Shown piece after piece: positions 2,634 to 30,857 of a DNA stretch of 64,000 bases (position 1 is the stretch's first letter; every line of letters starts with the position of its first letter). The DNA lies in contig VMFP01000003.1 in NCBI GenBank assembly GCA_007376145.1, forward strand, positions 28,741 through 92,740, in the 5' to 3' direction. The notes under the pieces were generated by a model, which was given only the letters and a program-made list of their open reading frames with translations, was not told the origin of the DNA and searched no databases. The translations under genes were made by a program, and so were the position numbers. The DNA is from Parcubacteria group bacterium Gr01-1014_38. Its GTDB lineage: Bacteria > Patescibacteriota > Andersenbacteria > UBA10190 > CAIZMI01.

Positions 2634-2664
2634 CCCGCCAGGAATACTTTTTATCGGCAGACCT
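2634..2664. repeat. 31-bp perfect direct repeat, left copy (island boundary, att-like)
   Basis: cccgccaggaatactttttatcggcagacct is identical to 18276-18306. Confidence 0.85.
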
Positions 2665-2698
2665 GGGTGCCCCGAATGGCATTCGGGTTCCGCTTCAT

Positions 2699-2992
2699 TC
2701 ATCGACGACTATTCCCAGCCCCGGAATGGGTTTGTGTTTCCAGAGCTGCCGACCGTGCGCTGCTTAGCGTTCGCCCAAACGCTCGGATAACGGGGTCAAC
2801 CATCCCGTACCGCTGGATGCTCTCCGCGAGCTGGGCGGTCGCATCCTTGTTCCAGCGGCGGGGGTTGTATGGAGCGGGTTTCAGTAGATCGATAGGGACA
2901 TACTGAATCGCTAGGTCGTGTTTGATCATGTTGGTGTGGAGTGCTTTTGTGCGCATGTTGTGAGATGAAGTGAGATATAAAAAGCCGGACAA
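2699..2992 (-). pseudogene. ParB-like N-terminal domain fragment (truncated)
   Basis: 'YVPIDLLKPAPYNPRRWNKDATAQLAESIQRYGMVDPVI' matches the ParB/Srx N-terminal motif. The frame then degenerates after about 50 aa. It lies just inside the left island repeat. Confidence 0.4.
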
Positions 2993-3186
2993 GATCCCGA
3001 AAAACAGGGATGAAGACTCCCAGTTTTTCAGAAGATTGTCCGGCGTTTTTGATGCTTATAGCATCGCCTACGGGCGTTACCCCGCAGACAACTTCTGTCC
3101 CGACACGGTTTTAAAGAGCTGTCCAAAGTTTAGCGCACTTCGCCATGCCCGTCAAATGCGTGTTCGCGAAAAACGCGCGGTGTCTA

Positions 3187-3216
3187 TTGACAGTAGTTGC
3201 TTAGGTTGTTTAGGAT
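3187..3216 (+). promoter_or_regulatory. Sigma70-like promoter for the island defence operon
   Basis: -35 TTGACA (3187-3192), 18-nt spacer, -10 TAGGAT (3211-3216). RBS GAGG sits 4 nt before the ATG at 3225. Confidence 0.5.
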
Positions 3217-3224
3217 GAGGACTA

Positions 3225-3515
3225 ATGAACGACCTGAAACAAGTTGGTGATTTACCAGGAGCCCAACAGAAGGCGCTCTACACCATTCTCCGCCTGGATA
3301 AGCCTGCATTTCGGACGTCCGACGTCCGCAAGAAGATGGAAGGAACTGCCACGGGCAAGTCCGTCGGGGCGATTCTCAACGCTCTCTTCCGCAACGGCTA
3401 TCTCGAGAAGCTTCAAGGTGGTAGGGATAAACTCTGGAAGCTCTCTGAACAAGCTGAAACTGTCCGTGACGAGATCAGACGGAAAATTTCCGCCGTGAAG
3501 GTCTACTGGTCATGA
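3225..3515 (+). CDS. Small winged-helix-like putative regulator
   Basis: 96-aa ORF with helix-turn-helix-like content. Its stop overlaps the start of the downstream helicase (ATGA), indicating translational coupling. Confidence 0.4.
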   Translation: MNDLKQVGDLPGAQQKALYTILRLDKPAFRTSDVRKKMEGTATGKSVGAILNALFRNGYLEKLQGGRDKLWKLSEQAETVRDEIRRKISAVKVYWS

Positions 3516-6500: not shown

Positions 6501-6694
6501 AGCAGACGACGAAAAAAGTCTTCCAGCAGCTCAGCCGTGAACTCAAGCACGGCATCAATCCGTTGAAACTCCTTGCGGTCGTACAACAGAGCGTCCCACG
6601 CGAATTCCTGGAAAGTCACCGCGCGGAAAGCGCGGCCGACGTGTCCGGCCCGCGCGAAGTCATTCTGTCCGAATACTTCACCACGACGCGATGA
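3512..6694 (+). CDS. PLD-family (HKD) nuclease / SNF2-family helicase fusion protein (restriction-like component)
   Basis: The N-terminus carries a single HKD motif ('HAKVYIM...GSSNFTQAGL'). It is followed by SNF2 motifs: GLGKT, 'FIDEAHRFR' (DEAH), helicase-C ('TEVLSEGVNL', 'QRVGRINR'). Confidence 0.85.
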   Translation: MNTDLTFITNEKGQSLKERFEVLIRDTKFFDALVGYFYTSGFHALYKPLENTQKIRILIGIGTSKQTLELIEQSRQKTFELSHAETKQVFSDLVAGEMSTSEDNRHVEEGVRKFTEWLRSGKLEIRAYPAADIHAKVYIMSFAEGDRDAGRVITGSSNFTQAGLVENLEFNVELKNRADYEFAKQKFEELWKDAVDVREKYLETITSRTWLNDTVTPYQLYLKFLYEYFKDELRPAEDMLFRYIPSEFKRLEYQEQAVLNAKKILDEYGGAFLSDVVGLGKTYMAAMLASQLDGRTLVIAPPVLLEKANPGSWPSVFPDFRVAADYESLGKLDHLLKRGIEKYQNVFIDEAHRFRTESNVTYEKLARICRGKRVVLVTATPYNNSPKDVLSQIKLFQTGKRSTIPNVPDLESFFSRLEKRVQHLDRQRDRDEYLLRTKENAREIREKVLKYLMVRRTRREIELYFGEDLKRQNLQFPTVSDPEPVFYELNEDEDVIFSKTIEFVAKQFTYARYTPLLYFKGDVPQVDEQGQINMGKFMKILLVKRLESSFHAFRNTVDRFLHSYEQFLRELERGHVYVSKKYIHKIFELIDEGDEEEIQRLLGEDKAQRYTAADFRPQFKKDLEHDLALLREIRVMWQRVTRDPKLLTLVELLSTRSLLKKSKLILFTESKETAEYIAKHLEQKFSGEILLFTGASSALVRERVIENFDARARFPKDDYRLLITTEVLSEGVNLHRSNVVLNYDIPWNPTRLMQRVGRINRVDTAFNTIHAFNFFPTRQAEDAIKLRAAAEAKIHAFISLLGSDARLLTDGEPIESHELFSRLVTKETITGEREEEESELKYLRVIRDIRDREPDLFDQIKRLPKKARTARKHTEAQRRLITYFRKSKLQKFFAVDGRESTEQDFLSAARLLEATPRETRESLGPDFYELLEKNRRAFELATIEEGLLESQERSGRDSATNVLKILRAIKDQRQFTEEQEEYLKLVMKRLELGAVPKQTTKKVFQQLSRELKHGINPLKLLAVVQQSVPREFLESHRAESAADVSGPREVILSEYFTTTR

Positions 6695-9600
6695 CGAGAG
6701 AACAAGCGAAGCAACTCGTTCAAGAAGCGCTCCAGAGGCCGTTCGACAAGGGGGGCTTTGTTCGTCTCGTGCGTAACCTCCTGAATCACTTGGAGGATGC
6801 CCCGTTTACCTACAGCGGCAACACGATGCGCCACGCGTATGCAAATGCCGTCAAGTCGCTCGAGCGCATTGGGAAGTACGAGGACCCAGAGGGGAGGAAA
6901 ATCGACGTGCTTGTCGTGAATCTCCGGCATGTCCACGCACTCGACCATGCCCGCACGATGCAACGGAACTTCATCGCGTGGTATCTCAATGGCAGTCGCG
7001 GAGACGTTTTCAAAGATGCAGCACTCGTCGCCTTCCATGCTGACGATGCGCCCGATTGGCGCTTCTCGCTCGTCCGCATGGACTATCGCCTCACGAAATC
7101 CGGCGAGAAAGTGAAGGCGGTCACGGAACTCACGCCAGCTCGGCGCTTTTCATTCTTGGTTGGGCAGCATGAAAAGACGCACACCGCGCAGAAGCAGCTC
7201 CTGCCAATCCTCGAGGATGACACACACGATCCGCTTCTTTCTAACCTCGAGCAGGCGTTCAGCATCGAGACAGTTACAAAGGAGTTCTTCGGGCGATACC
7301 GCGACCTCTTTCTTGAAACGAAGGAAGCGCTGGACAAAGTTGCCCGACGTGATAACGCCGTGCGAGAGGAGTTTTCCAATAAAGAAGTTGATACCACCGA
7401 CTTCGCCAAAAAACTTCTCGGGCAGATCGTCTTTCTCTACTTCCTCCAGAAGAAGGGGTGGTTCGGCGTGGCGCGGACGGGCAAGTGGGGTTCGGGGCCG
7501 AAGAATTTTCTTCGACAGCTTTTCGAGAAGAAGCATGGAGACTACAAGAACTTCTTCAATGATATTCTCGAACCCCTATTCTATGAGGCGCTCGCGAAGG
7601 AACGCGACAATGATTTTTACAGCCGCTTCAACTGCAAGATCCCATTTCTGAACGGTGGACTCTTCGATCCCATCTACAACTACGATTGGGTACACACGGA
7701 CATTCTTCTTCCCGATGAGTTGTTTTCAAATACTTTGCGGACAAAAGAAGGCGATATTGGGGCGGGCATTCTCGATGTCTTTGACCGCTATAACTTCACC
7801 GTCAAGGAAGACGAACCGCTGGAAAAGGACGTCGCCGTTGACCCGGAGATGCTCGGAAAGGTCTTCGAGAATCTCCTAGAAGTTAAAGACCGCAAGTCCA
7901 AAGGCACGTATTACACGCCGCGTGAGATTGTCCATTACATGTGCCAGGAAAGCCTGGTGAACTATTTGGCCGCAGAACTCGAGGGTATGGTGGGCCGAGA
8001 GGACATCGAGACGCTCATCAAGTATGGGGAGACAGCGGTTGAACACGACCGGCACGTTGAAGAAGGGGGAGAGACGCCGACGTACCAACACCGACTTCCC
8101 GAGGCGGTTCGCGCACGCGCGAAAGTGATCGACGACAAGCTCGCGGATATCCGCGTCTGTGATCCCGCGGTCGGCTCCGGAGCCTTTCCAGTCGGGATGA
8201 TGAACGAGGTTGTTCGGACACGCAACGCACTCACGAATTACGTTGAAGACAAAGATGATCGCTCAATGTACGAATTCAAGCGACACGCGATTCAGAGCTC
8301 TCTATATGGCGTGGACATCGATCCCGGCGCGGTCGAGATTGCCAAGCTCCGACTTTGGCTCTCGCTCGTCGTCGATGAAGAGGACATAAAAAAGATCAAG
8401 CCGCTACCCAACCTAGACTACAAAATGGTGCAAGGCGATTCGCTTTCGTCTGTTCAGAAGAATCTATTCAACCAACCGTTGTTTAATAAGCTTGAGGAGC
8501 TTAAACCCAAATTCTTTGAGGAGACCAATGCGCGCAAGAAGCAGGAGTATCGGCGGCAGATTGATGAACTTATTGATCAAATAACTAGAGGACACAAAGA
8601 TTTTGATTACGAAGTGTACTTCTCAGAAGTTTTCCACGAGAAGAAGGGGTTTGATGTTGCAATCGCAAATCCTCCATATCTCCAGATTCAGAAGATGGCA
8701 AAATCAGAAAAAGAGCGTTTCAGAAAGATCTTCAGAACTTTTTCAAAGACCGGAGACATTTACTGCTTGTTCTACGAACGGGCCATTCAGATATTAAAAC
8801 AAGACGGTACCTTGACCTTTATCACGTCGAATTCCTGGTTACGGGCAAGATACGGTGAGCTACTGAGAAAACTTTTGATTGAAAAGGCAAATCCTGTCCG
8901 GCTAATAAATTATGAGGATGCGCGGATGTTTGAACATGCTATCGTCGAAACCAACATCCTAATCGCTCAAAAATCCCAGTGGAATGGCCGTCTCCATGCC
9001 ACCACCGTCAAAAATAACAACTTAAATGCTTTGCCACTTGACGAGTATGTAAAGGGAAATACCTCCGTTATTAGTGACTTGGGAGTCGATAGCTGGAATA
9101 TCGCCGACAAAGCATCGTCTGGCCTAAAGAAGAAAATTGAAAGCCACTCAGTTTCGCTAAAAGACCTGAACGTTTCAGTTTATCGTGGTATTACAACGGG
9201 TTTCGTCGAGGCATTTGTTGTCGATGAGGAGATCAGGAGAAATTTAATCACTCAAGATGAAAAAAGCGCGGAAGTAATTAAGCCTGTCTTACGCGGGCAA
9301 GACGCAGGTAGATATTTCTATGCTTGGAAAGGACTTTGGCTAATAACGCTGCAATCAGGATGGACGAATAGAAATCGGGGCGGGAAAAGCCCGGAAAGTT
9401 TTTTTGCTGAAACCTATCCCGCAGTACACGAATATCTTAAAGGAGTAGGCTCCAAGATAAAAATTGGAGCGATTAAGGCGAAGGGAAAAGGATTATATGG
9501 TCGTGATGACCAAGGTGATTATTGGTGGGAACTCAGGGATTGTGATTTTTACTCCGAGTTTGAGAAAGAAAAAGTTATCTGGGGAGAGTTGTCTGATAAA

Positions 9601-9996
9601 CCGAAATTTACCTATGACGATCAGAAGTATTACGCACTTGATACCCTATTCGTAATGACGGGCGAATCTCTGAAATACTTGTTAGCAATTCTCAATTCGA
9701 AAATTTCCGAATGGTACTTCGCCCAAATCTCGACGAGTTCTGGCATGGGAACCACTAGATGGAAGAAGTACAAAATTGAACAGTTTCCAATAAAAAAGAT
9801 ATCTAAGGAGGAACAAAAGCCGATTGTACACCTAATCGATAAAATACTTTCCCTAACGATGGGCGAGGACTATTCGGCAAGCGATACGAAGCAAGCCAAA
9901 GTCCGCGAATACGAAAGACAAATCGACCAGCTCGTCTATAAACTCTACGGTCTTACACCAGAGGAGATTTCAATTGTTGAGCAAGGCAATGGCTAA
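6691..9996 (+). CDS. Eco57I/PglX-like gamma-class N6-adenine DNA methyltransferase with C-terminal specificity region
   Basis: Motif I 'DPAVGSGAFPV', motif IV 'ANPPY', and an N-terminal 'IVFLYFLQKKGWF' helix typical of type IIG/BREX PglX-like methyltransferases. No nuclease domain is present. The start overlaps the helicase stop (ATGA). Confidence 0.85.
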   Translation: MTREQAKQLVQEALQRPFDKGGFVRLVRNLLNHLEDAPFTYSGNTMRHAYANAVKSLERIGKYEDPEGRKIDVLVVNLRHVHALDHARTMQRNFIAWYLNGSRGDVFKDAALVAFHADDAPDWRFSLVRMDYRLTKSGEKVKAVTELTPARRFSFLVGQHEKTHTAQKQLLPILEDDTHDPLLSNLEQAFSIETVTKEFFGRYRDLFLETKEALDKVARRDNAVREEFSNKEVDTTDFAKKLLGQIVFLYFLQKKGWFGVARTGKWGSGPKNFLRQLFEKKHGDYKNFFNDILEPLFYEALAKERDNDFYSRFNCKIPFLNGGLFDPIYNYDWVHTDILLPDELFSNTLRTKEGDIGAGILDVFDRYNFTVKEDEPLEKDVAVDPEMLGKVFENLLEVKDRKSKGTYYTPREIVHYMCQESLVNYLAAELEGMVGREDIETLIKYGETAVEHDRHVEEGGETPTYQHRLPEAVRARAKVIDDKLADIRVCDPAVGSGAFPVGMMNEVVRTRNALTNYVEDKDDRSMYEFKRHAIQSSLYGVDIDPGAVEIAKLRLWLSLVVDEEDIKKIKPLPNLDYKMVQGDSLSSVQKNLFNQPLFNKLEELKPKFFEETNARKKQEYRRQIDELIDQITRGHKDFDYEVYFSEVFHEKKGFDVAIANPPYLQIQKMAKSEKERFRKIFRTFSKTGDIYCLFYERAIQILKQDGTLTFITSNSWLRARYGELLRKLLIEKANPVRLINYEDARMFEHAIVETNILIAQKSQWNGRLHATTVKNNNLNALPLDEYVKGNTSVISDLGVDSWNIADKASSGLKKKIESHSVSLKDLNVSVYRGITTGFVEAFVVDEEIRRNLITQDEKSAEVIKPVLRGQDAGRYFYAWKGLWLITLQSGWTNRNRGGKSPESFFAETYPAVHEYLKGVGSKIKIGAIKAKGKGLYGRDDQGDYWWELRDCDFYSEFEKEKVIWGELSDKPKFTYDDQKYYALDTLFVMTGESLKYLLAILNSKISEWYFAQISTSSGMGTTRWKKYKIEQFPIKKISKEEQKPIVHLIDKILSLTMGEDYSASDTKQAKVREYERQIDQLVYKLYGLTPEEISIVEQGNG

Positions 9997-11032
9997 GCGT
10001 CTTACTATTATTCTCGGTGCCGGTGCATCCTATAGCGTCAATCCGGATGGAAAGGCACTTGATACCCCTGGTTATCGACCACCTCTCGCGCATGAGATTT
10101 TTCGAGGTAGTCGAGAATTTAGAGTTATTTTGAATAAGTATCCACTCGCGGAACTCCTCGCAAGTGATATCGATCGCCGCATAAAACAGAACCGACAAGG
10201 AGTTGGGCTCGAACAAATCTTGCGTAGTTACGAGCAGGAAGTAACGGCGGGACGTGATTCACACATCGCCCGTCAGTTTTTGCAAATCCCTCTCTATCTT
10301 AATGAATTGTTCGGAGAGATAACGACTCACTTTACCAAACAGCCCGATGAGTACAACAACCTCGTGAATATAGCGCTCGGTCACCTCGATGAAGTTCTGT
10401 TTCTGACTCTGAATTACGACAATCTTTTTGAGATAGCGTTATCTCGAATCTCTAGCGTAGATTTTTCTGCAGAGCATCATTATACGCACGATGACAAATG
10501 GAAGCTCGTTAAACTTCACGGGTCGGTCAACTGGTATCGCCAGTTTTCGGGCTATCAGATTACAGAAGCAAGTGACAAGGAGTATTTTGCCCAACTGCAG
10601 CGCACTCCTCTTCCTCTTCAGCTTGACGATCGATTCATTTTAACGAGCCTACACGAGCATGCTCGGAAGTACATCGGGAACGCTCCTGTATATCCAGCAC
10701 TCACGGTACCCGTCGATGGAAAGTATCAACTGAATTCGCCGCCCGAGCATATTCAGTCCGCGACGGATTTTCTCTCAGGGTGCGAAAACTACCTCATTAT
10801 CGGCACGAGTGGTCGTGATCGCGATTTACTTGACCTGCTCCAGCAGCACGCACGGCAAGGGAAAGTTTTGGTTGTTGGGAGAGAGCAAGAAAATGCCGAG
10901 CGCACGAAGAGGAATTTTCAGGAAGTTGTCCCACAATTTCGATCTGATATGTCTGTGTATTCTCACCCGAGAGGATTCAGTGAATTTGTTGACAGCGGAG
11001 CACTGGACGAATTCTTACATAAGATCGCGTAA
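9986..11032 (+). CDS. SIR2-like (SIR2_2 family) NAD-dependent domain protein
   Basis: N-terminal 'TIILGAGASYS' Rossmann motif and 'KLHGSVNW' His motif typical of defence-associated SIR2 domains. The ATG at 9986 overlaps the 3' end of the methyltransferase. Confidence 0.7.
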   Translation, partial: AMAKRLTIILGAGASYSVNPDGKALDTPGYRPPLAHEIFRGSREFRVILNKYPLAELLASDIDRRIKQNRQGVGLEQILRSYEQEVTAGRDSHIARQFLQIPLYLNELFGEITTHFTKQPDEYNNLVNIALGHLDEVLFLTLNYDNLFEIALSRISSVDFSAEHHYTHDDKWKLVKLHGSVNWYRQFSGYQITEASDKEYFAQLQRTPLPLQLDDRFILTSLHEHARKYIGNAPVYPALTVPVDGKYQLNSPPEHIQSATDFLSGCENYLIIGTSGRDRDLLDLLQQHARQGKVLVVGREQENAERTKRNFQEVVPQFRSDMSVYSHPRGFSEFVDSGALDEFLHKIA

Positions 11033-11042
11033 ACATTCTGTC

Positions 11043-11372
11043 ATGTATCATCGTATATTTTGGGAACGGAAGGTCGAAGAAATACCTTGTCGTTGCTGTG
11101 GCTCGTTTAAAGCGACGCTCCGTTACAGTAAAGACGCTGAAAAGCTTTTTAAGGAAAAACTGTTTGAGCAATTTCGCGAGCACGCATACTGGAATCACTG
11201 GTATAACAAACACTACAACTGCGTGCGCTGCGGCCAATGGATTCCACCTGCTGAACGGGAACTAATCGTGGCCCATGGTTACCCCATCGATAATGTCCAT
11301 CCCGATTATTGCAAGGAGGAACAGCCCCATCTTCTTCGCATACACCGTCGCTGCCTAGATGAGTTATCGTAA
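11043..11372 (+). CDS. Small HNH-type endonuclease-like Zn-finger protein
   Basis: CxxC...CxxC pairs and 'AHGYPIDNVHPDYC' are consistent with the HNH fold. The start is taken at the internal ATG (MYHRI...) just after the SIR2 stop rather than the long overlapping upstream extension. Confidence 0.45.
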   Translation: MYHRIFWERKVEEIPCRCCGSFKATLRYSKDAEKLFKEKLFEQFREHAYWNHWYNKHYNCVRCGQWIPPAERELIVAHGYPIDNVHPDYCKEEQPHLLRIHRRCLDELS

Positions 11373-11377
11373 GTCGT

Positions 11378-11881
11378 ATGCCACAGTGCACTTCCTGCGG
11401 ATCGAGCGATTTCACACAGTACGGCCCTTACGCGGGCAGAATTGTTGCTGGAGGTGAAGTTCCTGATCTTAAGGATCAGATCATTGCGAGAAAATGTTCA
11501 GCCTGTGAATATCTTCAACTGGAAAAGCAGCTTACATCGGGCGTGAGAGTTGCCACAGCGCATATTGTAAAGGAAGGTCGTGCTGAGGACGTGCAACGGA
11601 TCATCGTCCGCTTCCTCTCCGACGAGCCGGATCAAAACGCTTTAATAAAGGAGTTCTACATCTGGCTTACCCAAGTATTCGTCGAGGATTTATTGAGACT
11701 TAAGGAGAGTGCAGAGGCACATGATTTTCTTCAAGCTGCAATTTTGGTTGCTGGATCGGAGTATAGAAAGGCGCATCAAGTGCCGAAGTATGGCGGAGTA
11801 GATTGCAGGGAGGAGTTTGGCGGCTGTCGGATCGTCTCCCGTCCGGAGACGTACAACTATCCTATCAAGCCGGATGTGTGA
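11378..11881 (+). CDS. Hypothetical protein with N-terminal zinc ribbon
   Basis: CTSCGS...CSACEY motif. Tightly spaced in the same plus-strand array. Confidence 0.4.
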   Translation: MPQCTSCGSSDFTQYGPYAGRIVAGGEVPDLKDQIIARKCSACEYLQLEKQLTSGVRVATAHIVKEGRAEDVQRIIVRFLSDEPDQNALIKEFYIWLTQVFVEDLLRLKESAEAHDFLQAAILVAGSEYRKAHQVPKYGGVDCREEFGGCRIVSRPETYNYPIKPDV

Positions 11882-11924
11882 ATTTTCCCACGATTTTTCT
11901 GCCTTATAACTGAACCAAAAGCAC

Positions 11925-13136
11925 ATGATAGCGCGCAGAGATACACCAAACTATAGAATATACGCTCTAGTCATTGGAGAGATACTTCGGCCAGGAAAAC
12001 TATTTGATTGCGAGATTAAAGAAATGAGTTTTGTAGAACAAGAAAAGAGAAGATTTTCCCCCATTGAGAGTGTTTTTTCTGGGAGGCACGGTGGAGATAG
12101 CAAAACTTACGCCACGCGCCTGCCTTACGTGGATCCGATGAGAATTAAGTCGGAACGTGTGGTTGTGTGCGATATTGATGAGGATGACGTAAAAGCTGCT
12201 CTAGGAGGCGCGATTAGACGAATTGAGAGGCTGTGCCGATTTTTGTCGGTCGCATATGTCGAAGATGCGAAGAAGAATTTTAGGAGAGAGCGCTTTGGAC
12301 TAACGCCATACCTCTATCAAGTAAACAAAGTCTACTCACTTGATACCGGCGGAAAGGAGCTAGATGCAGGCTTCAAGTTGGAAAGTGACTATGTTTATCT
12401 ACCGAATAGGCCTGAGCTCAACCAGTGGCGGCACAAAGAAACCGAGAAATTTCTGGAAGATATTTTTATTTTTCATGACGAGACATTAGAGCGAGCAATT
12501 AAGTATCTGTATCGATCCTCCATCGGACACTTTGTGGGAGATAGTCCTGAAAAAAGAGCTCTCGACCACATAAAATCAATCGAAATCATCTTGAATTCTC
12601 TATCAAGTAAAAGAAAGTTCGAGGGCAAGCTTAACGAGGCTGCTAACAAAATTGATCTCACCGAGAACGAGAAAGAAGCAATAAAGAAACTTTGGGAGAA
12701 TAGGTCGCGTTATGGTGACGTTGCCCATCCTTCTCCCTTCGATCAAGTTGAACGGTACCCAAACCAGTTCCCATTACCCAGTAATGTTCGATATCCGGGA
12801 GGAATCCATGACTCAATCGCGATCAATGTTTGTTTGAAGTACTTCTCCTACAGGAGAAGTTTATATGTCATAGACATAGAGAAGCCTTTTCGTGGTGAGG
12901 GCGTATCCAGCGACAGACAGGACGAAGAGGATATTATCGGTAATGTAAACCCCCAGTGGGAGAGCAACCACTTGTTTTTTAGGACTTCCGAAAAGGAAGA
13001 GAAAAAGCTTACGAAAAAAATACGACAGGCATTCGCTCGCGAATATGGAATTAGCGAAGGTCGTATTCTCAATGTTGTCGTTAAGCGGATTAGGAATAAG
13101 GAGAGCGTTATTGTAAGAGTGCAACCAACTGCGTGA
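11925..13136 (+). CDS. Hypothetical protein, possible HEPN-like (Rx5H) Abi-type effector
   Basis: 403-aa ORF. The 'RSRYGDVAHP' segment fits the Rx4-6H HEPN signature. No other recognisable domain. Confidence 0.4.
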   Translation: MIARRDTPNYRIYALVIGEILRPGKLFDCEIKEMSFVEQEKRRFSPIESVFSGRHGGDSKTYATRLPYVDPMRIKSERVVVCDIDEDDVKAALGGAIRRIERLCRFLSVAYVEDAKKNFRRERFGLTPYLYQVNKVYSLDTGGKELDAGFKLESDYVYLPNRPELNQWRHKETEKFLEDIFIFHDETLERAIKYLYRSSIGHFVGDSPEKRALDHIKSIEIILNSLSSKRKFEGKLNEAANKIDLTENEKEAIKKLWENRSRYGDVAHPSPFDQVERYPNQFPLPSNVRYPGGIHDSIAINVCLKYFSYRRSLYVIDIEKPFRGEGVSSDRQDEEDIIGNVNPQWESNHLFFRTSEKEEKKLTKKIRQAFAREYGISEGRILNVVVKRIRNKESVIVRVQPTA

Positions 13137-13166
13137 TAAAGCACCCTATTGGATTAGTGGAGCACC

Positions 13167-13643
13167 ATGGAAATCCTCGACGAGCAGCAAATCATTGAAA
13201 GGCGCCGGGAAACCGAGCAAGGCCTTGTGGATCTCCTCGAAGAAACGGGAAGCGATTTCGGTTTGGATGACATCAAGGAGATCATCTTCAACGAAGACGG
13301 ACAGGACGACCTCACCGACATCATTGCGATGTTCGATACCGGTCAGGGCGCGGCCGAACTTCAGGATGTTCTCGACCTCGTCACCGACGCCTGGAATTGC
13401 TTTCCACACAAATCTTTAGGCGGCCTCTCGCCGGCGGAGAAGGTGCTGGCATATCAGCAACGCAGCGACGGAGCGCCGGACCACCCGTCCGCGAATACCG
13501 TAGGAGGTGTTGGGGTATTCGTTTGTCGATGCGACGATCCCCACTGCGCGAAGTGCCTTCTCGTCAATTGCGAAGACAATCACTGCTCCGTCCACACGAA
13601 GGAACGAAAAGAGGCGTTCCGCAGAACATACCGCCAGCGATAG
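13167..13643 (+). CDS. Acidic hypothetical protein
   Basis: 158 aa with a strongly D/E-rich N-terminal half and a Cys/His-rich C-terminus. Last gene of the plus-strand array. Confidence 0.35.
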   Translation: MEILDEQQIIERRRETEQGLVDLLEETGSDFGLDDIKEIIFNEDGQDDLTDIIAMFDTGQGAAELQDVLDLVTDAWNCFPHKSLGGLSPAEKVLAYQQRSDGAPDHPSANTVGGVGVFVCRCDDPHCAKCLLVNCEDNHCSVHTKERKEAFRRTYRQR

Positions 13644-14120
13644 CTACGCGGTGGGCAGTAACCCGCCTTGCAAGAGAGGAAGTTTGATTAAATCACGGAG
13701 CTGATCGGGATTTTTGGCAAGATCAACCTCAACCCACGAGGCGAAGGCGTTATGTCGCTGAAGCACGGTCTTCTCCTCTTCAAACACATCGTCGTCAAAC
13801 CAGAGGAAATTTCGTGAGAAATCAATCGCTTCTGTTTTCAGCGTCGTCCAATTAGTAGGCTTCACTTGCCGTAACAGAGATAGAGTCTCAGAGGGTAGGT
13901 ATCGTGACAGAATACGGAGAGGCTGGGCCGTATCTCCTTTGCAATGCGTCGTGAGCCAATAGGTTTGATAGCGCTCGACGACGTACCGAATGAACGCATC
14001 AACATGCCGCGCTGGCTGCTTATCGTTTGCCAACAAGACTCCGTCGATGTCGAGATAAATGTCCATATGCTCATCATAGACCTTTCCGCCGCGTTCTCCG
14101 TAGTCTAGAGTATGATGCAA
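13644..14120 (-). CDS. HAD-superfamily hydrolase (nucleotidase/phosphatase-like)
   Basis: Motif I 'IYLDIDGVLL' (DxDG) and a late acidic motif 'FLWFDDD'. Confidence 0.55.
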   Translation of the reverse strand: MHHTLDYGERGGKVYDEHMDIYLDIDGVLLANDKQPARHVDAFIRYVVERYQTYWLTTHCKGDTAQPLRILSRYLPSETLSLLRQVKPTNWTTLKTEAIDFSRNFLWFDDDVFEEEKTVLQRHNAFASWVEVDLAKNPDQLRDLIKLPLLQGGLLPTA

Positions 14121-14140
14121 ATGATCAGCCGAATTCGCTT

Positions 14141-14632
14141 ATGACAGGATTCATTGTTGCGGCACTTATTGTTGTTGGCGGCATCGTCCTATATGCATTG
14201 CGACGCATGTTTCGCCACGGCGGGCGAATCACCAAGTATTTCGAAAATGCCGTGACCGTCTATATCTGGCTGGGTGAAGAAGATGCGCGGATTGCAGCCG
14301 TCACTGCCGCCAAGGTAGCGGCGAAAAGGCAGAGAAAACTCATGGCAGGGTATCTGAAACTACACGCAGAGCTATCCGAAATTTCGATTATTCCGGAGGC
14401 ACAGGAATCCATCCAAACCCTTCGAGAGCTCATAGATGACATTGAAGCCAAGGAGTGGAGTATACGGGACATCATGAAGGCAAAGGATAAACTCGAAGCA
14501 AGCAATCCTGAATATCTCAGGGCACTGAATAGAGCAGATAGTGGGATTTTTCCTCGAAAGTATCCGCGACTATTTGCGGCAAAGAGTATTCGCGAGACTG
14601 CTGCAATCGCCAAGAAAATGCAGAGCAGTTAA
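14141..14632 (+). CDS. Hypothetical single-pass membrane protein
   Basis: 'MTGFIVAALIVVGGIVLYAL' TM helix then a charged coiled-coil-like region. The start is chosen downstream of the overlap with the opposing HAD gene. Confidence 0.35.
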   Translation: MTGFIVAALIVVGGIVLYALRRMFRHGGRITKYFENAVTVYIWLGEEDARIAAVTAAKVAAKRQRKLMAGYLKLHAELSEISIIPEAQESIQTLRELIDDIEAKEWSIRDIMKAKDKLEASNPEYLRALNRADSGIFPRKYPRLFAAKSIRETAAIAKKMQSS

Positions 14633-14643
14633 GCGTTCATTCT

Positions 14644-15258
14644 GTGGCCACAGTAACTGAAAAATCGCTCGCGGAATTCAAACGAATCTACAAGAAGGAA
14701 TACGGCAAAGATATAGGCGACGCCGAGGCGCGCGACGCCGCGCAGCGCTTGCTGGACGTGTTCAAGCTTCTTCTTGATGTGGATAAGAAGGAGCGAGCAC
14801 GACAACTCAAGCTCAAGGAATCCCCAAAAGGATACCACCTCACCGACGGCACCTACAGCTGTTGTGTCTGCGGGAAGCAGGTCTCCGGTGAAGGAAGTTG
14901 GTACGACAAGCACGGCATTAAGTGCCTTCTCTGCCAGCGGGCGGTCGAGCAGCGAAAGATTCCGGTCAGCGTCTGCACGAACAAAGACAGCTGGTATGCC
15001 ACGTGGGAACTCGCGTACTACTACAAACTGAAATCACCGACGATCCGCAAGCTTGTTCGCAACGGCACCCTGAAAGCCCGCATCGTGCCGCACGAGAATG
15101 GAAGCCCATACTTTTCCGTCTTTCTGGTCAAGGACAACCTCGGTGTTCTTCAACCGAAACCGAAGCCGAAGATCGTTCACGTAGACGAGCGAACCATCAC
15201 CGTCGAGTCCCCGGGATTAACGCTGGGGATTACCAGCCAAAATCTACCCCATCCGTGA
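14644..15258 (+). CDS. Hypothetical Zn-finger protein
   Basis: 204-aa ORF (apparent GTG start) with CCVCGK...CLLCQ motifs. Confidence 0.4.
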   Translation: MATVTEKSLAEFKRIYKKEYGKDIGDAEARDAAQRLLDVFKLLLDVDKKERARQLKLKESPKGYHLTDGTYSCCVCGKQVSGEGSWYDKHGIKCLLCQRAVEQRKIPVSVCTNKDSWYATWELAYYYKLKSPTIRKLVRNGTLKARIVPHENGSPYFSVFLVKDNLGVLQPKPKPKIVHVDERTITVESPGLTLGITSQNLPHP

Positions 15259-15330
15259 TTAAGGCATCTTTACAGAAAGGCCACTCTCTACAATAATTCA
15301 TTGTTCTTGGCGGTACTAATTTTTAGAAAA

Positions 15331-15354
15331 CGCCTGCATGGTGACATGCAGGCG
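15331..15354 (-). terminator. Rho-independent terminator (perfect 10-bp stem)
   Basis: cgcctgcatg-gtga-catgcaggcg hairpin, with a T-run on the minus strand (plus-strand ttttagaaaa immediately 5'). It lies between convergent genes. Confidence 0.6.
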
Positions 15355-15369
15355 TGAAGTTACCTTGAT

Positions 15370-15939
15370 CTATACGGATCTATATGACTCAAAGAGCTTC
15401 GCGATGGATTCCATCACGCTGATCTCTGTCTCGACATCGCACAGATCATACTTTCCAGAGAAGCCGTCGATGACCTTCGAGACGTAGGCTATCAGCCTGT
15501 CTGACGAAAACAAGTCGATCCTGGCGACAAAGAGACTTTTCCTGTTTTCTTCTATCAGTTTCCGAACCGAGAGCGGCACCTTGTCAGATAACATCGGCGG
15601 ATGCAGGAGGATGATCGGCTTTGCGTGTAAGATCGCATAGGCCGTTTCAATGCTCGCGCTTTCACCGATATATCCGCGATGCCTTCCGTGCTTGTTATGC
15701 ACGATGTGAACAGGATTTGTTCTGATCGCCGCGAAGAAAGCCAACTCGACATCGTAGAACGACTGGTCGGCGGTAGGCATAAACGTAACCGGCGTGCCTT
15801 GGTATTCTCCGACGATCTTGTCGCTGAATGGGAACTGTACCTCGATCCCCGCTGCAACCAATCTTCTCTTCAGGTTGAAAATTCCCCTATCTCTCTTGGA
15901 GAATTTCCCGCTCATTTGTGTTTTCATCGTGTCCGGCAT
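15370..15939 (-). CDS. Nucleoside 2-deoxyribosyltransferase/DNPH1-like fold protein (paralog A)
   Basis: 'GYIGESASIETAYAILHAKPIILL' aligns with 'NYIGGNSFLEIGYAHIVGKKIFL' of the 17557-17979 protein. It carries the conserved Glu typical of N-glycosidic-bond enzymes of this fold. Confidence 0.45.
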   Translation of the reverse strand: MPDTMKTQMSGKFSKRDRGIFNLKRRLVAAGIEVQFPFSDKIVGEYQGTPVTFMPTADQSFYDVELAFFAAIRTNPVHIVHNKHGRHRGYIGESASIETAYAILHAKPIILLHPPMLSDKVPLSVRKLIEENRKSLFVARIDLFSSDRLIAYVSKVIDGFSGKYDLCDVETEISVMESIAKLFESYRSV

Positions 15940-16006
15940 TACACGACCTCCTTTCTGTTTGAGGCTAAGAAAAAGGCGGCGTGGAAACCCAGCCGCCCAA
16001 TGTTGC

Positions 16007-16663
16007 CTACAAAGCCGTGATTTCTAGCTCCTTAAAGAGATCGGCGGGAACGGCGAATGTCGTCTTCGCTTTGCTCCTCAAGTCGGAAGGCCTGCCGAGT
16101 ATTTCTTCGGCATGGTCAATCGACCCATACCAAAGAGACTTGAACTTCGCCTCTCGCATGCCCTGCATGTCCATATGAGCGACATGAAGCACGCCGGGAT
16201 CAGATTCTTTCATAACTTGTCGGTACTCCGGCTTCGGCTTGCACCGAAATGTAATTTCGGTAAAGAGCGCCTGACGGGTTTTGGGCAGAAAATCGAATCC
16301 TCCGAAGCCGAGCATCCAAGACACCTCTTCTCCGACTCGCACGCGGTATCCGAGGCAGATGCTGTCTTCGCATTCTTCCGCCGATCCCAGAAAGATGCTG
16401 TTGACCTTTTTGAAGGCAAGCAGGAGTTCCTTGAGATCGTCTCGCTTCAAGACTTTCGGAAAGATGATGCTTTTGGTGGAGATTTTCTCGTCGCTGATCG
16501 CTTCTTGGATGAGCGACTCCATTTGTTGCGGATCAACATCGGCAACAGAGAAGTACCACCCGAACTTTTCAGGATCGGAGGCGGCGTGAGCCGCAAAGAG
16601 ACACCCCGCATTTCCTTGCCGGTAGAACGCAAGCTGGTCCTCGACGATGCGTCTCTCAAGCAT
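16007..16663 (-). CDS. Hypothetical protein
   Basis: 218-aa ORF in the same minus-strand cluster. No confidently recognised domain. Confidence 0.4.
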   Translation of the reverse strand: MLERRIVEDQLAFYRQGNAGCLFAAHAASDPEKFGWYFSVADVDPQQMESLIQEAISDEKISTKSIIFPKVLKRDDLKELLLAFKKVNSIFLGSAEECEDSICLGYRVRVGEEVSWMLGFGGFDFLPKTRQALFTEITFRCKPKPEYRQVMKESDPGVLHVAHMDMQGMREAKFKSLWYGSIDHAEEILGRPSDLRSKAKTTFAVPADLFKELEITAL

Positions 16664-16797
16664 ATGAACCTCTCTTTCTGTGGGTTGTTTTTCCAGAGAA
16701 CAAACGGGCCTACATCATAAGCCTATTACCCATACTGTCAACATCTTGGGCGATGATACATAAACCCTCTGCCAAAGAGGGTTTATGAGTCGGCGGG

Positions 16798-17553
16798 CTA
16801 CGAAATTGCCAGAGTAAATATCTTTTTATATTTTCTCAAATATTGACTCCGGTCTTTCCTGCGATATTGAAGAACAAATCTTGGATGTTCCAGAGCATGT
16901 ATCTTTTCGAAAAATCCGTATTCTTCGTTTATGCCCTGAAACACTTTGAGATTCGTTCCCGTGCCCAGCACAATGGCCAGCCTTCTGTTTGCGCCGAAAT
17001 CAATTTGTTTTTTTACGGTCTCTACGAGAAACGGCCGTATTCGAGAAAGAAAACCCGCGTCATCATAGTAATTGTAATTCCTGTTGTCTCGGACAAAACC
17101 AACAGGACAAACCGCAGTCAAGAAAAACGACCCATAAAACGCTTGTACTCCGCCGAGTTTGTTGATGACTTCATAGACAAACCCAGAAGTAAGCTCGCGC
17201 TTTTTCTCAAGCGAGTTGGGAATGCGGCAATACTCCTGTAAGGCTACTGGATCTGTAAAGGGAACCCCCGTGGTTCCGGATCCGAATCTGCCCGGATTGA
17301 TGCCAAAGGCGAAGATACGGTTCTGCGTATCCGAATAAAACTTGTCATAAAACTCCTTTGCGTATCCTCGTGTCTGCGGATGTGCATACGGATAGATGAT
17401 TTCCATTCCAGGCAATAAGAGTTTGCGAGGGAAAACAAGAGTATTGTAAAAATCCAGCACTCGCTCGCCGAATGTCTGTTTCTTGGCCGATTTTTTCATC
17501 TGTAACCTTTCCTTTCTTTCGATTGTTAAAGAGCGCTCTCGGGTTACCATCAT
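16798..17553 (-). CDS. Uracil-DNA-glycosylase superfamily protein (MUG/TDG-like GINPG motif)
   Basis: 'GINPGRFGSGTTGVPFTDP' matches the family-2 (MUG/TDG) motif A, and a later 'EHPRF' is a possible motif B. The true start may be the internal MKKSAKK (17499). Confidence 0.5.
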   Translation of the reverse strand: MMVTRERSLTIERKERLQMKKSAKKQTFGERVLDFYNTLVFPRKLLLPGMEIIYPYAHPQTRGYAKEFYDKFYSDTQNRIFAFGINPGRFGSGTTGVPFTDPVALQEYCRIPNSLEKKRELTSGFVYEVINKLGGVQAFYGSFFLTAVCPVGFVRDNRNYNYYDDAGFLSRIRPFLVETVKKQIDFGANRRLAIVLGTGTNLKVFQGINEEYGFFEKIHALEHPRFVLQYRRKDRSQYLRKYKKIFTLAIS

Positions 17554-17556
17554 ATA

Positions 17557-17979
17557 TTAGCGTATTAAATTCAAGTCGCCATTAATAATCATTGGCCGCA
17601 CTGCTTCAATCTCCTGTTGAATCAATTCAATATCGGGAATTTCGTTCATCAAGAAAATTTTCTTGCCCACAATGTGGGCATACCCAATTTCCAGAAAGGA
17701 ATTGCCTCCGATGTAATTTTCTACGCCCTTCTTTTCGTAGTTCAACACTAAAATTGCATCAGAATGCGCTATAAGCTGGCAATGTTTGCGGATAAGATCG
17801 TTCGCCATCTTTCTTTGAGCGCCTTCCGATCCGCCCATGTTGTTTTTATCAACGCGGCCGTTGGCGTACTCTTCAGTTCCTTCCGGGATAAACACTGTAT
17901 GACCACGCTTTTCGATTTCTTGTCTGGCAATAATCATTTCCTTGGCAAAGGCCATACTGCCACAAAGAGTTATTTTCAT
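17557..17979 (-). CDS. Nucleoside 2-deoxyribosyltransferase/DNPH1-like protein (paralog B)
   Basis: 'MKITLCGSMAF...' Rossmann-like start and 'NYIGGNSFLEIGYA' catalytic-Glu region typical of the NDT/Rcl family. Confidence 0.55.
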   Translation of the reverse strand: MKITLCGSMAFAKEMIIARQEIEKRGHTVFIPEGTEEYANGRVDKNNMGGSEGAQRKMANDLIRKHCQLIAHSDAILVLNYEKKGVENYIGGNSFLEIGYAHIVGKKIFLMNEIPDIELIQQEIEAVRPMIINGDLNLIR

Positions 17980-18112
17980 ACTTACTTGGCTTCACACATC
18001 AATAAAGGGACATTTCTTTTCTCGTCCGTGATGAGTTCACATTCCACAAGGCGCAGGGATTGATTGCTATTTCCCATGCAGGAAGCGTGTCATAACACAG
18101 CGATCTCGTCCA

Positions 18113-18162
18113 AAATGAGACACGGAGGCTTCCTCCTTTATACTGTCTCATTTGTCTCATTT
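18113..18162. repeat. Inverted/tandem repeat element near island right end
   Basis: aaatgagaca (18113-18122) is inverted relative to tgtctcattt (18144-18153). tgtctcatt is then directly repeated (18153-18161). Confidence 0.5.
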
Positions 18163-18275
18163 CCCTCTCAAACCCCCGAAAGTTGCGCCCCGACCCACTC
18201 CCCTCCCCGTATCTAGAAAAGCGTCCGAAAAATCCCTAAACTCCCTCGAGGGGTCCGGGTTCCAGACCCATATGT

Positions 18276-18306
18276 CCCGCCAGGAATACTTTTTATCGGC
18301 AGACCT
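18276..18306. repeat. 31-bp perfect direct repeat, right copy (island boundary, att-like)
   Basis: Identical to 2634-2664. It is fused to the 14-bp head (gacccatatgtccc, 18265-18278) of the 57-bp repeat family. Confidence 0.85.
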
Positions 18307-18335
18307 ACATGGTTAGATAGTTTTAAAATGATTTT

Positions 18336-19292
18336 ATGCTTACCCACACCGATATTCATTATCTAGTTGGTTTACTTACTAGAGTGGAGGAAGCTGACGA
18401 TGTCATCGTTGAGTTAGGCGATATGGTGTACGACTCAGCGGCCAATGAAGAGAGGGACGTAGATATTACTGTTACATATACTGATAAGAACGGTGAAAAA
18501 ACTGCCTACAAAGGTGTTGAAGTTAAGGATCATAGTAGACCGCTTGATGTCCAAAAGGTTGAAGAGCTTTGCCAGAAGCTTGCAGACATGCCAGACATTA
18601 CACATAAAGCAATTGTTTCGGCGAGCGGCTATAGAGACGGTGCGATAAAAAAGGCTCAAGCACATGGAGTAGAGTTGTTGGAAATAGCTGATTGGCTAAA
18701 TCCGTACGAGGGATTCAACGTGAAGTTTACTGATAATGCTCTCACTCTAATTGAGCCCGAGTGGGTAGATGGTCCTCATGTGCGTATTAATGTCGCAAAG
18801 AAAGATATTGATGATCTATCGGGCGAATATCAAAACAATCCACGAGTATGCAATAAATTGGGTGATACGTATCCTCATGCAGTGGATCTCAATACCTTGA
18901 GCCGGTATGCTCACAGCACCGTATCGAATAAGATTCAGTGGCAGACTGATCCAATTCGCGTGAGGCACGGTGAAAGTATTCCTATACACACCGCTGTGCT
19001 TTTTTCAGAAGCACCATATATTAAACTTCGCAACAAACTGGTTTTAGTAGAAAATTGTACGGTTACCGGCGAAATTTACTGCATAGTTCACGACAAGCCC
19101 GCGTTCAGGGTATTGCGACAATATGGCAGCGAAAAACCAATCTCAGGCTGTATAATGGTTGAGCTAAAGAACCATAATCTTACGGGTATATCCGTGAGTA
19201 ATTCGAATAACAAAATTACTGCCCTCAACATTCCGTACGCCGATCGTGTAAAGAAGACGATACGTAAACATCGAATCGGAAGACGGGACTGA
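18336..19292 (+). CDS. Hypothetical protein, possible PD-(D/E)xK nuclease fold
   Basis: 'RDVDITVTY...YKGVEVKD' is a D...(E/D)xK-like pattern. AT-rich cassette flanked by related repeats. Confidence 0.35.
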   Translation: MLTHTDIHYLVGLLTRVEEADDVIVELGDMVYDSAANEERDVDITVTYTDKNGEKTAYKGVEVKDHSRPLDVQKVEELCQKLADMPDITHKAIVSASGYRDGAIKKAQAHGVELLEIADWLNPYEGFNVKFTDNALTLIEPEWVDGPHVRINVAKKDIDDLSGEYQNNPRVCNKLGDTYPHAVDLNTLSRYAHSTVSNKIQWQTDPIRVRHGESIPIHTAVLFSEAPYIKLRNKLVLVENCTVTGEIYCIVHDKPAFRVLRQYGSEKPISGCIMVELKNHNLTGISVSNSNNKITALNIPYADRVKKTIRKHRIGRRD

Positions 19293-19314
19293 ACACGCCC
19301 CATCATTCGCCTCC

Positions 19315-19371
19315 GACCCATATGTCCCAAGTTCACTCCCGAATTGACCTTTAATAAATCCCTCAATACAC
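19315..19371. repeat. 57-bp cassette-flanking repeat (copy B)
   Basis: gacccatatgtcccaagttcactcccgaattgacctttaataaatccctcaatacac is about 81% identical (46/57) to 19973-20029. Confidence 0.7.
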
Positions 19372-19396: not shown

Positions 19397-19957
19397 ATGA
19401 GGGATGAAATCATTGAGAAACTAAATAAGCGTCTAGCCGAGGGTATTAACCGTGAATCCGATGTTGTCTATTTATTCGTTGAGATCCGGAAGTTATTTGA
19501 ACATGACGACTTGCCTCAGTATCCACAACTCAGGTTTTATGGAGATTGGGTAGTGCACACCAAGCTATCGAGAATACGTCGAGACGGCGCTTTGGCTGAA
19601 TATTTAGGAAGGATCAATGATGCAGTTGATATTAAGCGGCAGGGGGGTGAAGAACAGAATGTGACTACTCAAATTACTAACGCAATGTCTCTTGATCGTC
19701 TAAGAGAAGAAATGGTGACTTTCTTTCAAGAAAGAAGTTTGGACAGTCGCTTACTAGAAGTAGGCCAGTGGAGAAATTTTATAAAATGGCTCATCAGTAT
19801 TCTGATAGATACACCACTTGTGGCGTCTAACCACCCTGATTTCAACCTTATCAAGGAATTTTCGTTCGGCCCAAGCAAAGATGAAACTTCTGTTGCCAGC
19901 TACAAGATCGTGTGTGCAGATGGGACTACTGTTACCGGCCAAGTTTTTGTTAATTGA
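19397..19957 (+). CDS. Hypothetical protein
   Basis: 186-aa ORF, AT-rich, between repeat copies B and C. Confidence 0.35.
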   Translation: MRDEIIEKLNKRLAEGINRESDVVYLFVEIRKLFEHDDLPQYPQLRFYGDWVVHTKLSRIRRDGALAEYLGRINDAVDIKRQGGEEQNVTTQITNAMSLDRLREEMVTFFQERSLDSRLLEVGQWRNFIKWLISILIDTPLVASNHPDFNLIKEFSFGPSKDETSVASYKIVCADGTTVTGQVFVN

Positions 19958-19972
19958 TAATGCCACGTTTGC

Positions 19973-20029
19973 GACCCACATGCCTCAAAGTCACTTCCGA
20001 ATTGGCCCCTAATAAATCCCTTAACACAC
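19973..20029. repeat. 57-bp cassette-flanking repeat (copy C)
   Basis: gacccacatgcctcaaagtcacttccgaattggcccctaataaatcccttaacacac. It is followed at about 20052-20083 by a degenerate copy of the 31-bp att-like sequence (cccgccaccagtatgaaatatcgggacagtcc). Confidence 0.65.
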
Positions 20030-20236: not shown

Positions 20237-20557
20237 ATGTCAAAGAAGTTATATGTTGGCGGTCTTTCCTACGACACCACAGAGGCGTCGTTACAGGCAG
20301 CCTTTGCTCAGGCAGGAAGCGTTGCCTCAGCAACGGTCATTATGGACAGGATGAGCGGTAGTTCCAAAGGGTTCGGCTTCGTAGAGATGTCGACCGAGGA
20401 AGAAGCTCAAAAGGCTATTGAGATGCTCAATGGGAAAGAACTTGATGGCCGGACGATTACCGTTAATGAAGCTCGTCCGCAGACGGACAGGCCTCGACGC
20501 GATAGCTTTTCTCGCGATAACCGTGGCTTTCGCGGCGGCGGGAGAGGACGCTGGTAA
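20237..20557 (+). CDS. RRM-type glycine-rich RNA-binding protein
   Basis: RNP-1 'KGFGFVEM' and RNP-2 'LYVGGL' motifs, with a C-terminal RGG-rich tail. Confidence 0.85.
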   Translation: MSKKLYVGGLSYDTTEASLQAAFAQAGSVASATVIMDRMSGSSKGFGFVEMSTEEEAQKAIEMLNGKELDGRTITVNEARPQTDRPRRDSFSRDNRGFRGGGRGRW

Positions 20558-30828: not shown

Positions 30829-30857
30829 TTGTCAATACACGGCGTGCCATGTACGGT
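30829..30857 (+). promoter_or_regulatory. Candidate promoter for ATP-grasp gene
   Basis: -35 TTGTCA, 17-nt spacer, weak -10 TACGGT. RBS GGAG is 4 nt before the ATG at 30875. Confidence 0.3.

Follow-up and report, generated by a model that had tools for sequence, protein, structure and literature searches.

We analysed a 64,000-nucleotide stretch of contig VMFP01000003.1 (the window), which covers positions 28,741 to 92,740 of its forward strand in the assembly GCA_007376145.1 of Parcubacteria group bacterium Gr01-1014_38. On its minus strand, four genes that we call E, D, C and B form a cassette (17979-15370) whose order is kept in other bacteria of the Candidate Phyla Radiation (CPR). D is by sequence a SMUG2-type DNA glycosylase, E and B fall with differing certainty into the nucleoside deoxyribosyltransferase (NDT)/DNPH1 superfamily, and C belongs to an undescribed family. 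We tentatively propose, at slightly less than an even chance, that the cassette strips one class of non-canonical base both from DNA and from the nucleotide pool. The fold classes of the components are known, and eukaryotes provide a precedent for the proposed logic; what is new is their combination and the unannotated family C. If the proposal is true, bacteria hold a genetically linked counterpart of the mammalian DNPH1-SMUG1 pair, with pool sanitation and base excision joined in one transferable cassette.

Organisation and conservation of the cassette

Letters A to E denote minus-strand open reading frames (ORFs) of the window, and handles of the form L0xx denote related contigs compared with it. 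An initial annotation, made from the sequence alone, had described these five ORFs as a minus-strand cluster. All five were found on the ORF map: A (13644-14120, 158 aa, or 140 aa in the deposited annotation), B (15370-15939, 189 aa), C (16007-16663, 218 aa), D (16798-17553, 251 aa as the longest ORF; 16798-17499, 233 aa, from M19) and E (17557-17979, 140 aa). The cluster is not contiguous on the same map, on which A is split from B by two plus-strand ORFs (14027-14632 and 14644-15258). The true unit is E-D-C-B, running from E as its first gene to B as its last, and A lies outside it. The deposited D protein, TSC72626.1, begins at M19 (233 aa, from 17499), and all of A to E are labelled hypothetical proteins in the deposited Gr01-1014_38 contig.

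The four genes lie on the same strand, with gaps of 3 nt between E and D (57 nt from the M19 start of D), 134 nt between D and C, and 67 nt between C and B; they probably form one operon. E is divergent from a gene for an Mrr-like protein, and the 356-bp intergenic region between them (17980-18335), which we presume to hold the promoter of the cassette, also contains the right copy of a 31-nt direct repeat (18276-18306) described below. We infer this promoter from position, because no minus-strand sigma-70-like match was found in 17980-18335. The best such match of the region, TTGACA-16-TATGAT (11/12), lies on the minus strand at 16714-16741, inside the 134-nt spacer between D and C, and is a possible internal promoter for C and B. 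Since 8 sigma-70-like sites were found against 5.2 expected, it should be read as a match to the consensus and not as evidence of function.

The E-D-C-B order was also observed in at least three other distinct CPR loci (L021, L022/L024 and L010/L025/L026), with an amino-acid identity of 47-75%. Had these genes never been found side by side elsewhere, the initial annotation would have been in doubt; their co-localisation indicates instead that they form a functional unit. Several variants were seen, namely B-E-D (L027), D-C-B (L029), C-B (L030 and L031), and D-B with a distant C-like gene nearby (L028). Further loci were retrieved with B, the rarest component. D adjoins C in 12 of the 20 loci that hold a C homolog, and this adjacency reaches a gammaproteobacterial metagenome-assembled genome (MAG), in the order C-D, and a Sphingomonas MAG, in divergent orientation. 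The core of the cassette is D-C, to which one CPR subclade adds B and E.

Individual members also occur outside the cassette. E was found alone, once near a MazG gene, and B was found in the absence of D and C in L023 (223-2282) and L032, where it sits between a CYTH gene and an unannotated 280-aa gene with an IS110 transposase alongside. In L010 (733-2440; Spechtbacteria contig MHOE01000028, the same sequence as L025 and L026), E is truncated when some 80 conserved residues have been read and C is broken into two frames that overlap, the E-D-C-B arrangement being otherwise intact. Either the genes are becoming pseudogenes or the three records share the same assembly errors.

Protein families of the cassette

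D passes the Pfam profile of the uracil-DNA glycosylase (UDG) superfamily (PF03167; 45.9 bits against a cut-off of 24.3, residues 73-243). Against PDB sequences it gave a full-length alignment with 5h0j and 5h0k (E=1.6e-57, residues 26-246), with which it shares GINPGRFGSG and ALEHPRF identically. We take 5h0j to be the Pedobacter heparinus enzyme, the PDB record itself being titled "uncharacterized protein". The weaker PDB matches of D were SMUG1 enzymes and one uracil-DNA glycosylase chain (2d3y), and no MUG/TDG chain appeared among its PDB matches up to E=10. The initial annotation had called D a MUG/TDG-like protein on its GINPG motif. The motif and the superfamily stand, and the assignment to MUG/TDG (UDG family 2) was rejected, as the matches are to SMUG2, SMUG1 and 2d3y and never to MUG/TDG; GINPG is common to SMUG2 and so cannot discriminate between the two. 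On sequence evidence D is a SMUG2-type member of the UDG superfamily, and its deposited label should read accordingly. Public records name its homologs "SMUG2 DNA glycosylase family" or "DUF4918". Motif 1 (GINPG, aa 84-88) and motif 2 (EHPRF, aa 222-226) are both intact, so that at the sequence level D keeps both catalytic motifs of the solved SMUG2, and the loss of the active site that would have undermined the glycosylase assignment is not seen. SMUG2 and its relatives are described as acting on a broad set of substrates, which may extend to uracil derivatives, hypoxanthine and xanthine (PMC8307549). The P. heparinus enzyme is that of Pang et al. 2017, cited in PMC10776899 and PMC8307549. 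The P. heparinus SMUG2 gene is a stand-alone repair gene, and a Listeria SMUG2 homolog likewise stands alone, whereas the CPR D gene is coupled to C and often also to B and E.

E carries the motif YIGGNSFLEIGYA (aa 89-101), with the candidate nucleophile Glu97 inside it, as well as a CGSM loop (aa 6-9) and Asp74 within SDAILVLN. Against Pfam Nuc_deoxyrib_tr (PF05014) it scored 17.2 bits (E=0.0058), below the cut-off of 28.8. Among the 36 members of its family, 25 match the same profile at E<=0.01 (best 4e-6), E97 is invariant and D74 is at least 90% conserved. PDB sequence searches with E and with its profile gave no informative match. These sequence features make E a probable member of the NDT/DNPH1 superfamily. 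E97 and D74 would, from their positions in the motifs, be the counterparts of the catalytic residues E104 and D80 of DNPH1 (PMC10603095). Phosphate-binding serines separate the nucleotide enzymes DNPH1 and MilB from the nucleoside enzymes of the NDT type; six residues before the Glu, E has Gly91, which is neither Ser nor Asp, with Asn93 and Ser94 close by. We found 711 homologs of E, mostly in CPR bacteria.

B has the related motif YIGESASIETAYA (aa 90-102), in which Glu98 is invariant. E and B had been described as two paralogs sharing the pattern YIGxxxxxEIxYA around a catalytic Glu. E fits this pattern and B, with ET in place of EI, approximates it; the Glu is present in both, and both keep it within a G-x5-E-x-G/A-x-A motif, Glu98 of B aligning with Glu97 of the E family in a profile alignment. 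At the aligned position of the general-acid Asp, B has Asn75-Pro76, and it is also invariant at Glu65, His78, His81 and Asn82. B had no Pfam, NCBIfam or PDB sequence match, a 25-sequence profile included; its weak PDB matches to ribosomal S6 and armadillo proteins were rejected as chance. On structural comparison its fold is that of MilB, NDT and Rcl, the best match being MilB, followed by NDTs, and B is a member of the NDT/MilB/DNPH1 superfamily by fold only. Between B and E, BLASTP aligned 24 residues (E=0.007) and profile-profile comparison gave a 44% probability (E=2e-4, 103 columns). By these alignments the two are old, divergent members of one fold, and to call them recent paralogs overstates their relationship. 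Compared with MilB, BlsM, BcmB and the class I and II NDTs, B has no detectable sequence similarity and carries Asn-Pro for the general-acid Asp, and the score of E is under the Pfam cut-off; no link to a DNA glycosylase is known for any of those enzymes.

C belongs to a family of about 460 representatives at 50% identity, with no annotation anywhere, that is spread over CPR, Acidobacteriota, cyanobacteria, Poribacteria, Proteobacteria and one phage. Cys21 (in AGCLFAA) is invariant in 47 of 47 members, and the motifs CLGYR, FLPKTRQ, H160-x-A-H and AKTTFA are conserved. The C protein had no Pfam, NCBIfam or PADLOC match, Pfam was likewise silent for the sets of 31 close and 47 diverse members, and PDB profile searches with two alignments of the family found no chain. 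A pattern scan of viral contigs found no C homolog (tblastn of phage genomes did, as described below), and plasmids gave no match. In one member, P0313 (454 aa), a CYTH-like domain follows at the C-terminus. The initial annotation could not match the gene combination to a described system, and in the literature we too found no description of family C or of the E-D-C-B combination.

The predicted model of C is an alpha/beta sandwich, remotely similar to the YqcI/YcgG thiolate-haem enzymes, in which Cys21 lies between helices 1 and 2. Its sole structural neighbour was AglA (template-modelling (TM) score 0.42), a thiolate-haem natural-product N-hydroxylase with Cys44 as haem ligand (PMC12866846). 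The YqcI/YcgG profile PF08892 matched none of the 31 close and none of the 47 diverse members, and C is not demonstrably a YqcI/YcgG protein, but it may function in a similar way. In comparison with the YqcI/YcgG enzymes AglA, DcsA and GntA, then, C differs in the missing PF08892 match in 78 members and in a context of DNA and nucleotide metabolism, where those enzymes are found in natural-product clusters. We consider it rather doubtful that C is a thiolate-haem or cysteine-dependent enzyme for N-oxidation of a nucleobase, defining a base-level branch of nucleotide hygiene. If it were, a new enzyme chemistry would be coupled with DNA glycosylases, in CPR bacteria and also in other phyla and in phages. 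The same low likelihood covers, jointly, two versions under this reading of C, one being an N-hydroxylated analogue toxin with self-protection and the other the stripping of phage bases with C as the unmasking enzyme.

Functional readings of the cassette

In the mechanism that we favour, the target would be a damaged, N-oxidised or otherwise modified base, handled at two levels. D would flip this base out of DNA and cut its N-glycosidic bond; ordinary base-excision repair would then deal with the abasic site. On free (deoxy)nucleosides or nucleoside monophosphates, E and B would cut the same type of bond, and so remove the abnormal base from the precursor pool and prevent its incorporation or reincorporation. 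C would process the base once it is released; a change in the oxidation state of an exocyclic nitrogen is the most plausible reaction. This logic resembles that of mammalian cells, in which DNPH1 sanitises the pool of hydroxymethyldeoxyuridine monophosphate and SMUG1 is the glycosylase for hydroxymethyluracil, the pair acting on hydroxymethyldeoxyuridine (PMC10603095). In both, an N-glycosidase of the DNPH1/NDT fold would work beside a SMUG-type glycosylase, taking one base off both the deoxynucleoside monophosphate and DNA. The cassette differs in being a cluster of bacterial genes, in having two divergent NDT-fold proteins, in using SMUG2 and not SMUG1, and in its extra protein of a new family.

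The neighbourhoods of related loci were consistent with this proposal. The recurrent neighbours of the cassette or of C all act on nucleotides, free bases or abasic DNA; ribosomal genes were also among the recurrent neighbours. NUDIX genes occur near the cassette or C in L012, L013, L021, L022 and L031, and guanylate kinase genes in L022/L024 and L028. Single loci contribute an Fpg/Nei glycosylase together with adenylate kinase (L014), an ExoIII-family nuclease (L029), a YfbR-like HD domain (L017) and, beside C, an NDT-like gene above the Pfam cut-off (L013). A CYTH gene lies beside B in L023 and L032, and CYTH is the domain fused to C in P0313. Outside CPR the commonest partner of C is a MOSC gene, which stands directly beside it in five non-CPR loci (L011, L013, L014, L015 and L016). 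The MOSC proteins YcbX and YiiM reduce and detoxify N-hydroxylated base analogues (PMC3831636, PMC5818509), and the theme common to YcbX, YiiM, mARC and C would be the disarming of abnormal nucleobases; this window and the CPR cassettes have no MOSC gene. The MOSC neighbour had no sequence match in PDB, and we therefore do not call it YiiM-like. SMUG2, MOSC, NUDIX, Fpg, CYTH and NDT-like partners all point to nucleobase chemistry for C, which could explain how nucleotide scavengers avoid incorporating foreign modified bases, or reveal a new defence or toxin.

Related pairings are seen in other lineages. On several Streptomyces plasmids, described below, an NDT-like gene comes directly after a DUF4918 UDG-like gene. 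By tblastn of phage genomes, Cellulophaga phages phi17:2 and phi4:1 were found to have a member of the C family in their replication module, at a distance of three genes from one for a UDG-like protein; the seven matching records are variants of these two phages. In phi17:2 (L040, NC_021798) gp004 (1682-2230) has the C-family motifs GCVFA, LIFP, TRQ, HLAH and AKTTF, gp008 (2972-3409) is a 145-aa UDG-like protein, and a macro-domain protein and DNA polymerase I are encoded nearby.

Parcubacteria generally lack nucleotide biosynthesis (PMC4508563). The cassette matches the GC content of its surroundings in most other CPR loci, and since hosts with such a native-GC cassette generally do not synthesise nucleotides, pool hygiene would be valuable to them. 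Several observations weigh against our proposal. The host of the present cassette encodes purD, so that the argument from dependence on salvage is not obviously valid here, and the cassette itself lies in a low-GC island among defence genes. It is uncommon and unevenly distributed (27 B-family and 72 C-family clusters among 5.8 billion) and often near toxin-antitoxin, insertion sequence (IS), Fic or AAA-ATPase genes. Like defence genes, it thus behaves as an accessory trait. The likeness of C to haem enzymes is structural and modest (TM 0.42), Pfam and the PDB profiles giving no link at the level of sequence. CPR bacteria are mostly anaerobes with no known haem synthesis, an ill fit for an O2-dependent haem enzyme.

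The initial annotation had proposed that these enzymes act on base-sugar bonds or nucleotide monophosphates, and that they serve either to restrict phages with modified DNA bases by a glycosylase, coupled to salvage or detoxification of the products, or to deplete nucleotides. The notion of action on base-sugar bonds in DNA and nucleotides fits every fold assignment, and the salvage and detoxification half is the best supported, location being the evidence for the defence half. In an anti-phage role, which we judge unlikely, D would excise a modified base such as 5-hydroxymethyluracil or a hypermodified thymine from phage DNA to create lethal abasic sites, while E and B would hydrolyse the modified (deoxy)nucleoside monophosphate precursors of the phage and starve its replication. 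C would unmask or alter a hypermodification for D, by analogy with the help that BapA gives to Brig3. The low-GC island (47% against 62%) with its PLD-SNF2 helicase, type IIG restriction-methyltransferase, SIR2-like and Mrr-like genes, and the perfect 31-nt direct repeat that brackets the segment, speak for such a role, as do the rare and patchy distribution and the AAA_13/AAA_21 ATPase, methyltransferase, toxin-antitoxin and IS genes near some related loci. MilB, the best structural match of B, acts on hydroxymethyl-CMP. UDG-superfamily glycosylases are moreover proven effectors, one of them in a two-gene operon with an accessory enzyme, known defence glycosylases including Brig1, Brig2 and Brig3 with BapA (PMC11078745; 10.1101/2025.10.29.685425; 10.64898/2026.02.25.707755). 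The Brig systems resemble D-C in being UDG-superfamily glycosylases of islands, one of which has an operon partner that widens its range. However, D is a conventional SMUG2 by sequence, close to repair-type enzymes (E=1.6e-57) and exact in its motifs, whereas Brig2 and Brig3, compared here by their descriptions, are reported to be highly divergent from canonical UDGs. A BapA-like role for C was rejected on fold, BapA consisting of two beta-barrels and the model of C being a sandwich. PADLOC-DB 2.0.0 gave no match for A to E at E<=0.1, a 2023 library that predates the Brig and Dag glycosylases. In other genomes the neighbours are NUDIX, nucleotide kinase, ExoIII-family nuclease and MOSC genes and not defence genes, and orthologous cassettes were not seen beside recognised defence genes, unlike the Brig glycosylases. 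The other island genes of the window that served as queries (SIR2-like, Mrr-like and adjacent ORFs) had no homolog in the related loci and so never recur beside the cassette. That a phage itself carries a C-family gene also argues against defence.

Somewhat less probable still is that the genes make a toxic base or nucleoside analogue and confer immunity to it. Here B would free a base from its nucleotide, as MilB, BlsM and BcmB do, C would N-hydroxylate or oxidise it as YqcI/YcgG enzymes do guanidines, E may return it to deoxyribose, and D would keep the analogue out of the DNA and precursor pool of the producer, a protective job done elsewhere by NUDIX and MOSC proteins. Every gene is given a role in this scheme, which is in line with AglA, a natural-product N-hydroxylase (PMC12866846), as the sole structural neighbour of C, with MilB, a nucleoside-antibiotic enzyme, as the best match of B, and with MOSC, a known detoxifier of N-hydroxylated purines, as the commonest partner of C outside CPR. 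An array on several Streptomyces plasmids (L041, L043 and L044) gives it further weight. It comprises genes for an S-adenosylmethionine-dependent methyltransferase, a DUF4918 UDG-like protein, an NDT-like two-domain protein directly after it, an AMP-binding enzyme, two ketosynthase-like proteins and a thioesterase, with a HAD hydrolase and a glycosyltransferase upstream in one record; several of its genes are thus of PKS/NRPS type. The C-terminal half of the NDT-like protein matches the E-family profile, and one record names it nucleoside 2-deoxyribosyltransferase; it is not a member of the C family. Possibly the array is a natural-product cluster in which a nucleobase analogue is used or resisted. 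Its UDG-like protein has GSSPA instead of GINPG, and so may not be equivalent or comparable to D. C is also weakly similar to AglA and shows no sequence relationship to YqcI/YcgG, genes for an exporter or for further tailoring do not recur, and a step that needs O2 and haem is implausible in most CPR bacteria. C as producer and MOSC as reducer in one operon would make a futile cycle, and a phage replication module is an odd location for a toxin gene. Finally, B or E or both could be TIR-like enzymes that cleave NAD+ or make a signal in a Thoeris-like cassette, which we regard as very improbable: the top matches of B are MilB and NDTs, the E family matches Pfam Nuc_deoxyrib_tr and not TIR, neither protein matches the PADLOC ThsB/TIR models, and the neighbours are nucleotide-metabolic, with no sensor or effector partner.

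The surrounding island and host contig

The initial annotation had placed these genes in a defence island, and this setting was borne out. The region has a GC content of 47%, against 62% in its right flank, and within 3512-11032 it encodes a 1060-aa protein with PLD (HKD) and SNF2 helicase domains (PADLOC "HKD+Snf2", E=2e-51), a 1101-aa type IIG restriction-methyltransferase that overlaps it (PADLOC, E=0), and a 352-aa SIR2_2-domain protein that overlaps the latter. A 318-aa protein with an Mrr_cat restriction-endonuclease domain (18336-19292, E=1e-5) is encoded divergently from E. Its gene falls immediately beyond the right copy of the perfect 31-nt direct repeat CCCGCCAGGAATACTTTTTATCGGCAGACCT (2634-2664 and 18276-18306), the flanks of which are unrelated and which is not expected to occur by chance. 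The repeat brackets a 15.6-kb segment (2634-18306) holding the helicase, the restriction-methyltransferase, the SIR2-like gene, genes of no recognised family, A, and E-D-C-B, and it looks like the att-site duplication of an integrated island. No integrase was visible in the bracketed island, and integration linked to a tRNA was rejected, as the sole tRNA is at 30559, far from the island. The cassette is here the cargo of a low-GC island that is probably mobile. Inside the left repeat is a 97-aa ORF (2699-2992, minus strand) beginning DLLKPAPYNPRRW, which by eye resembles an N-terminal ParB/sulfiredoxin-type motif and may be a truncated gene.

A was described earlier as an adjacent HAD hydrolase. 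It does have the motifs DIDG (aa 24-27) and DDD (aa 109-111), and its match to Pfam HAD_SAK_2 was weak (15.8 bits, E=0.019, cut-off 27.5, 30 residues covered). There was no match among PDB sequences. No homolog of A was found in any related locus, the sole other contig being the same locus reassembled. A was rejected as a member of the cassette because of this lack of co-occurrence and the opposite-strand genes in between. Of these, 14027-14632 encodes a small 201-aa protein with one predicted membrane helix, and 14644-15258 a 204-aa CxxC...CxxC zinc-ribbon protein with weak matches to HTH_17/excisionase and homing-endonuclease-like proteins. The plus-strand pair may be remnants of a mobile element.

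Outside the island the host contig has a GC content of about 62% and encodes the F420-0:gamma-glutamyl ligase CofE (1339-2145) and PurD (30755-32155). CPR bacteria normally lack purine synthesis. PurD and CofE are therefore unusual, and either the bin assignment or the biology of the lineage deserves a check. Inside the right edge of the low-GC region, a 58-nt direct repeat of 81% identity (19314-19371 and 19972-20029) flanks a 186-aa ORF with no family match (19397-19957). The GC content is back at the level of the host at a 106-aa RRM_1 RNA-binding protein with a Gly/Arg-rich tail (20237-20557), which marks the right edge of the island.

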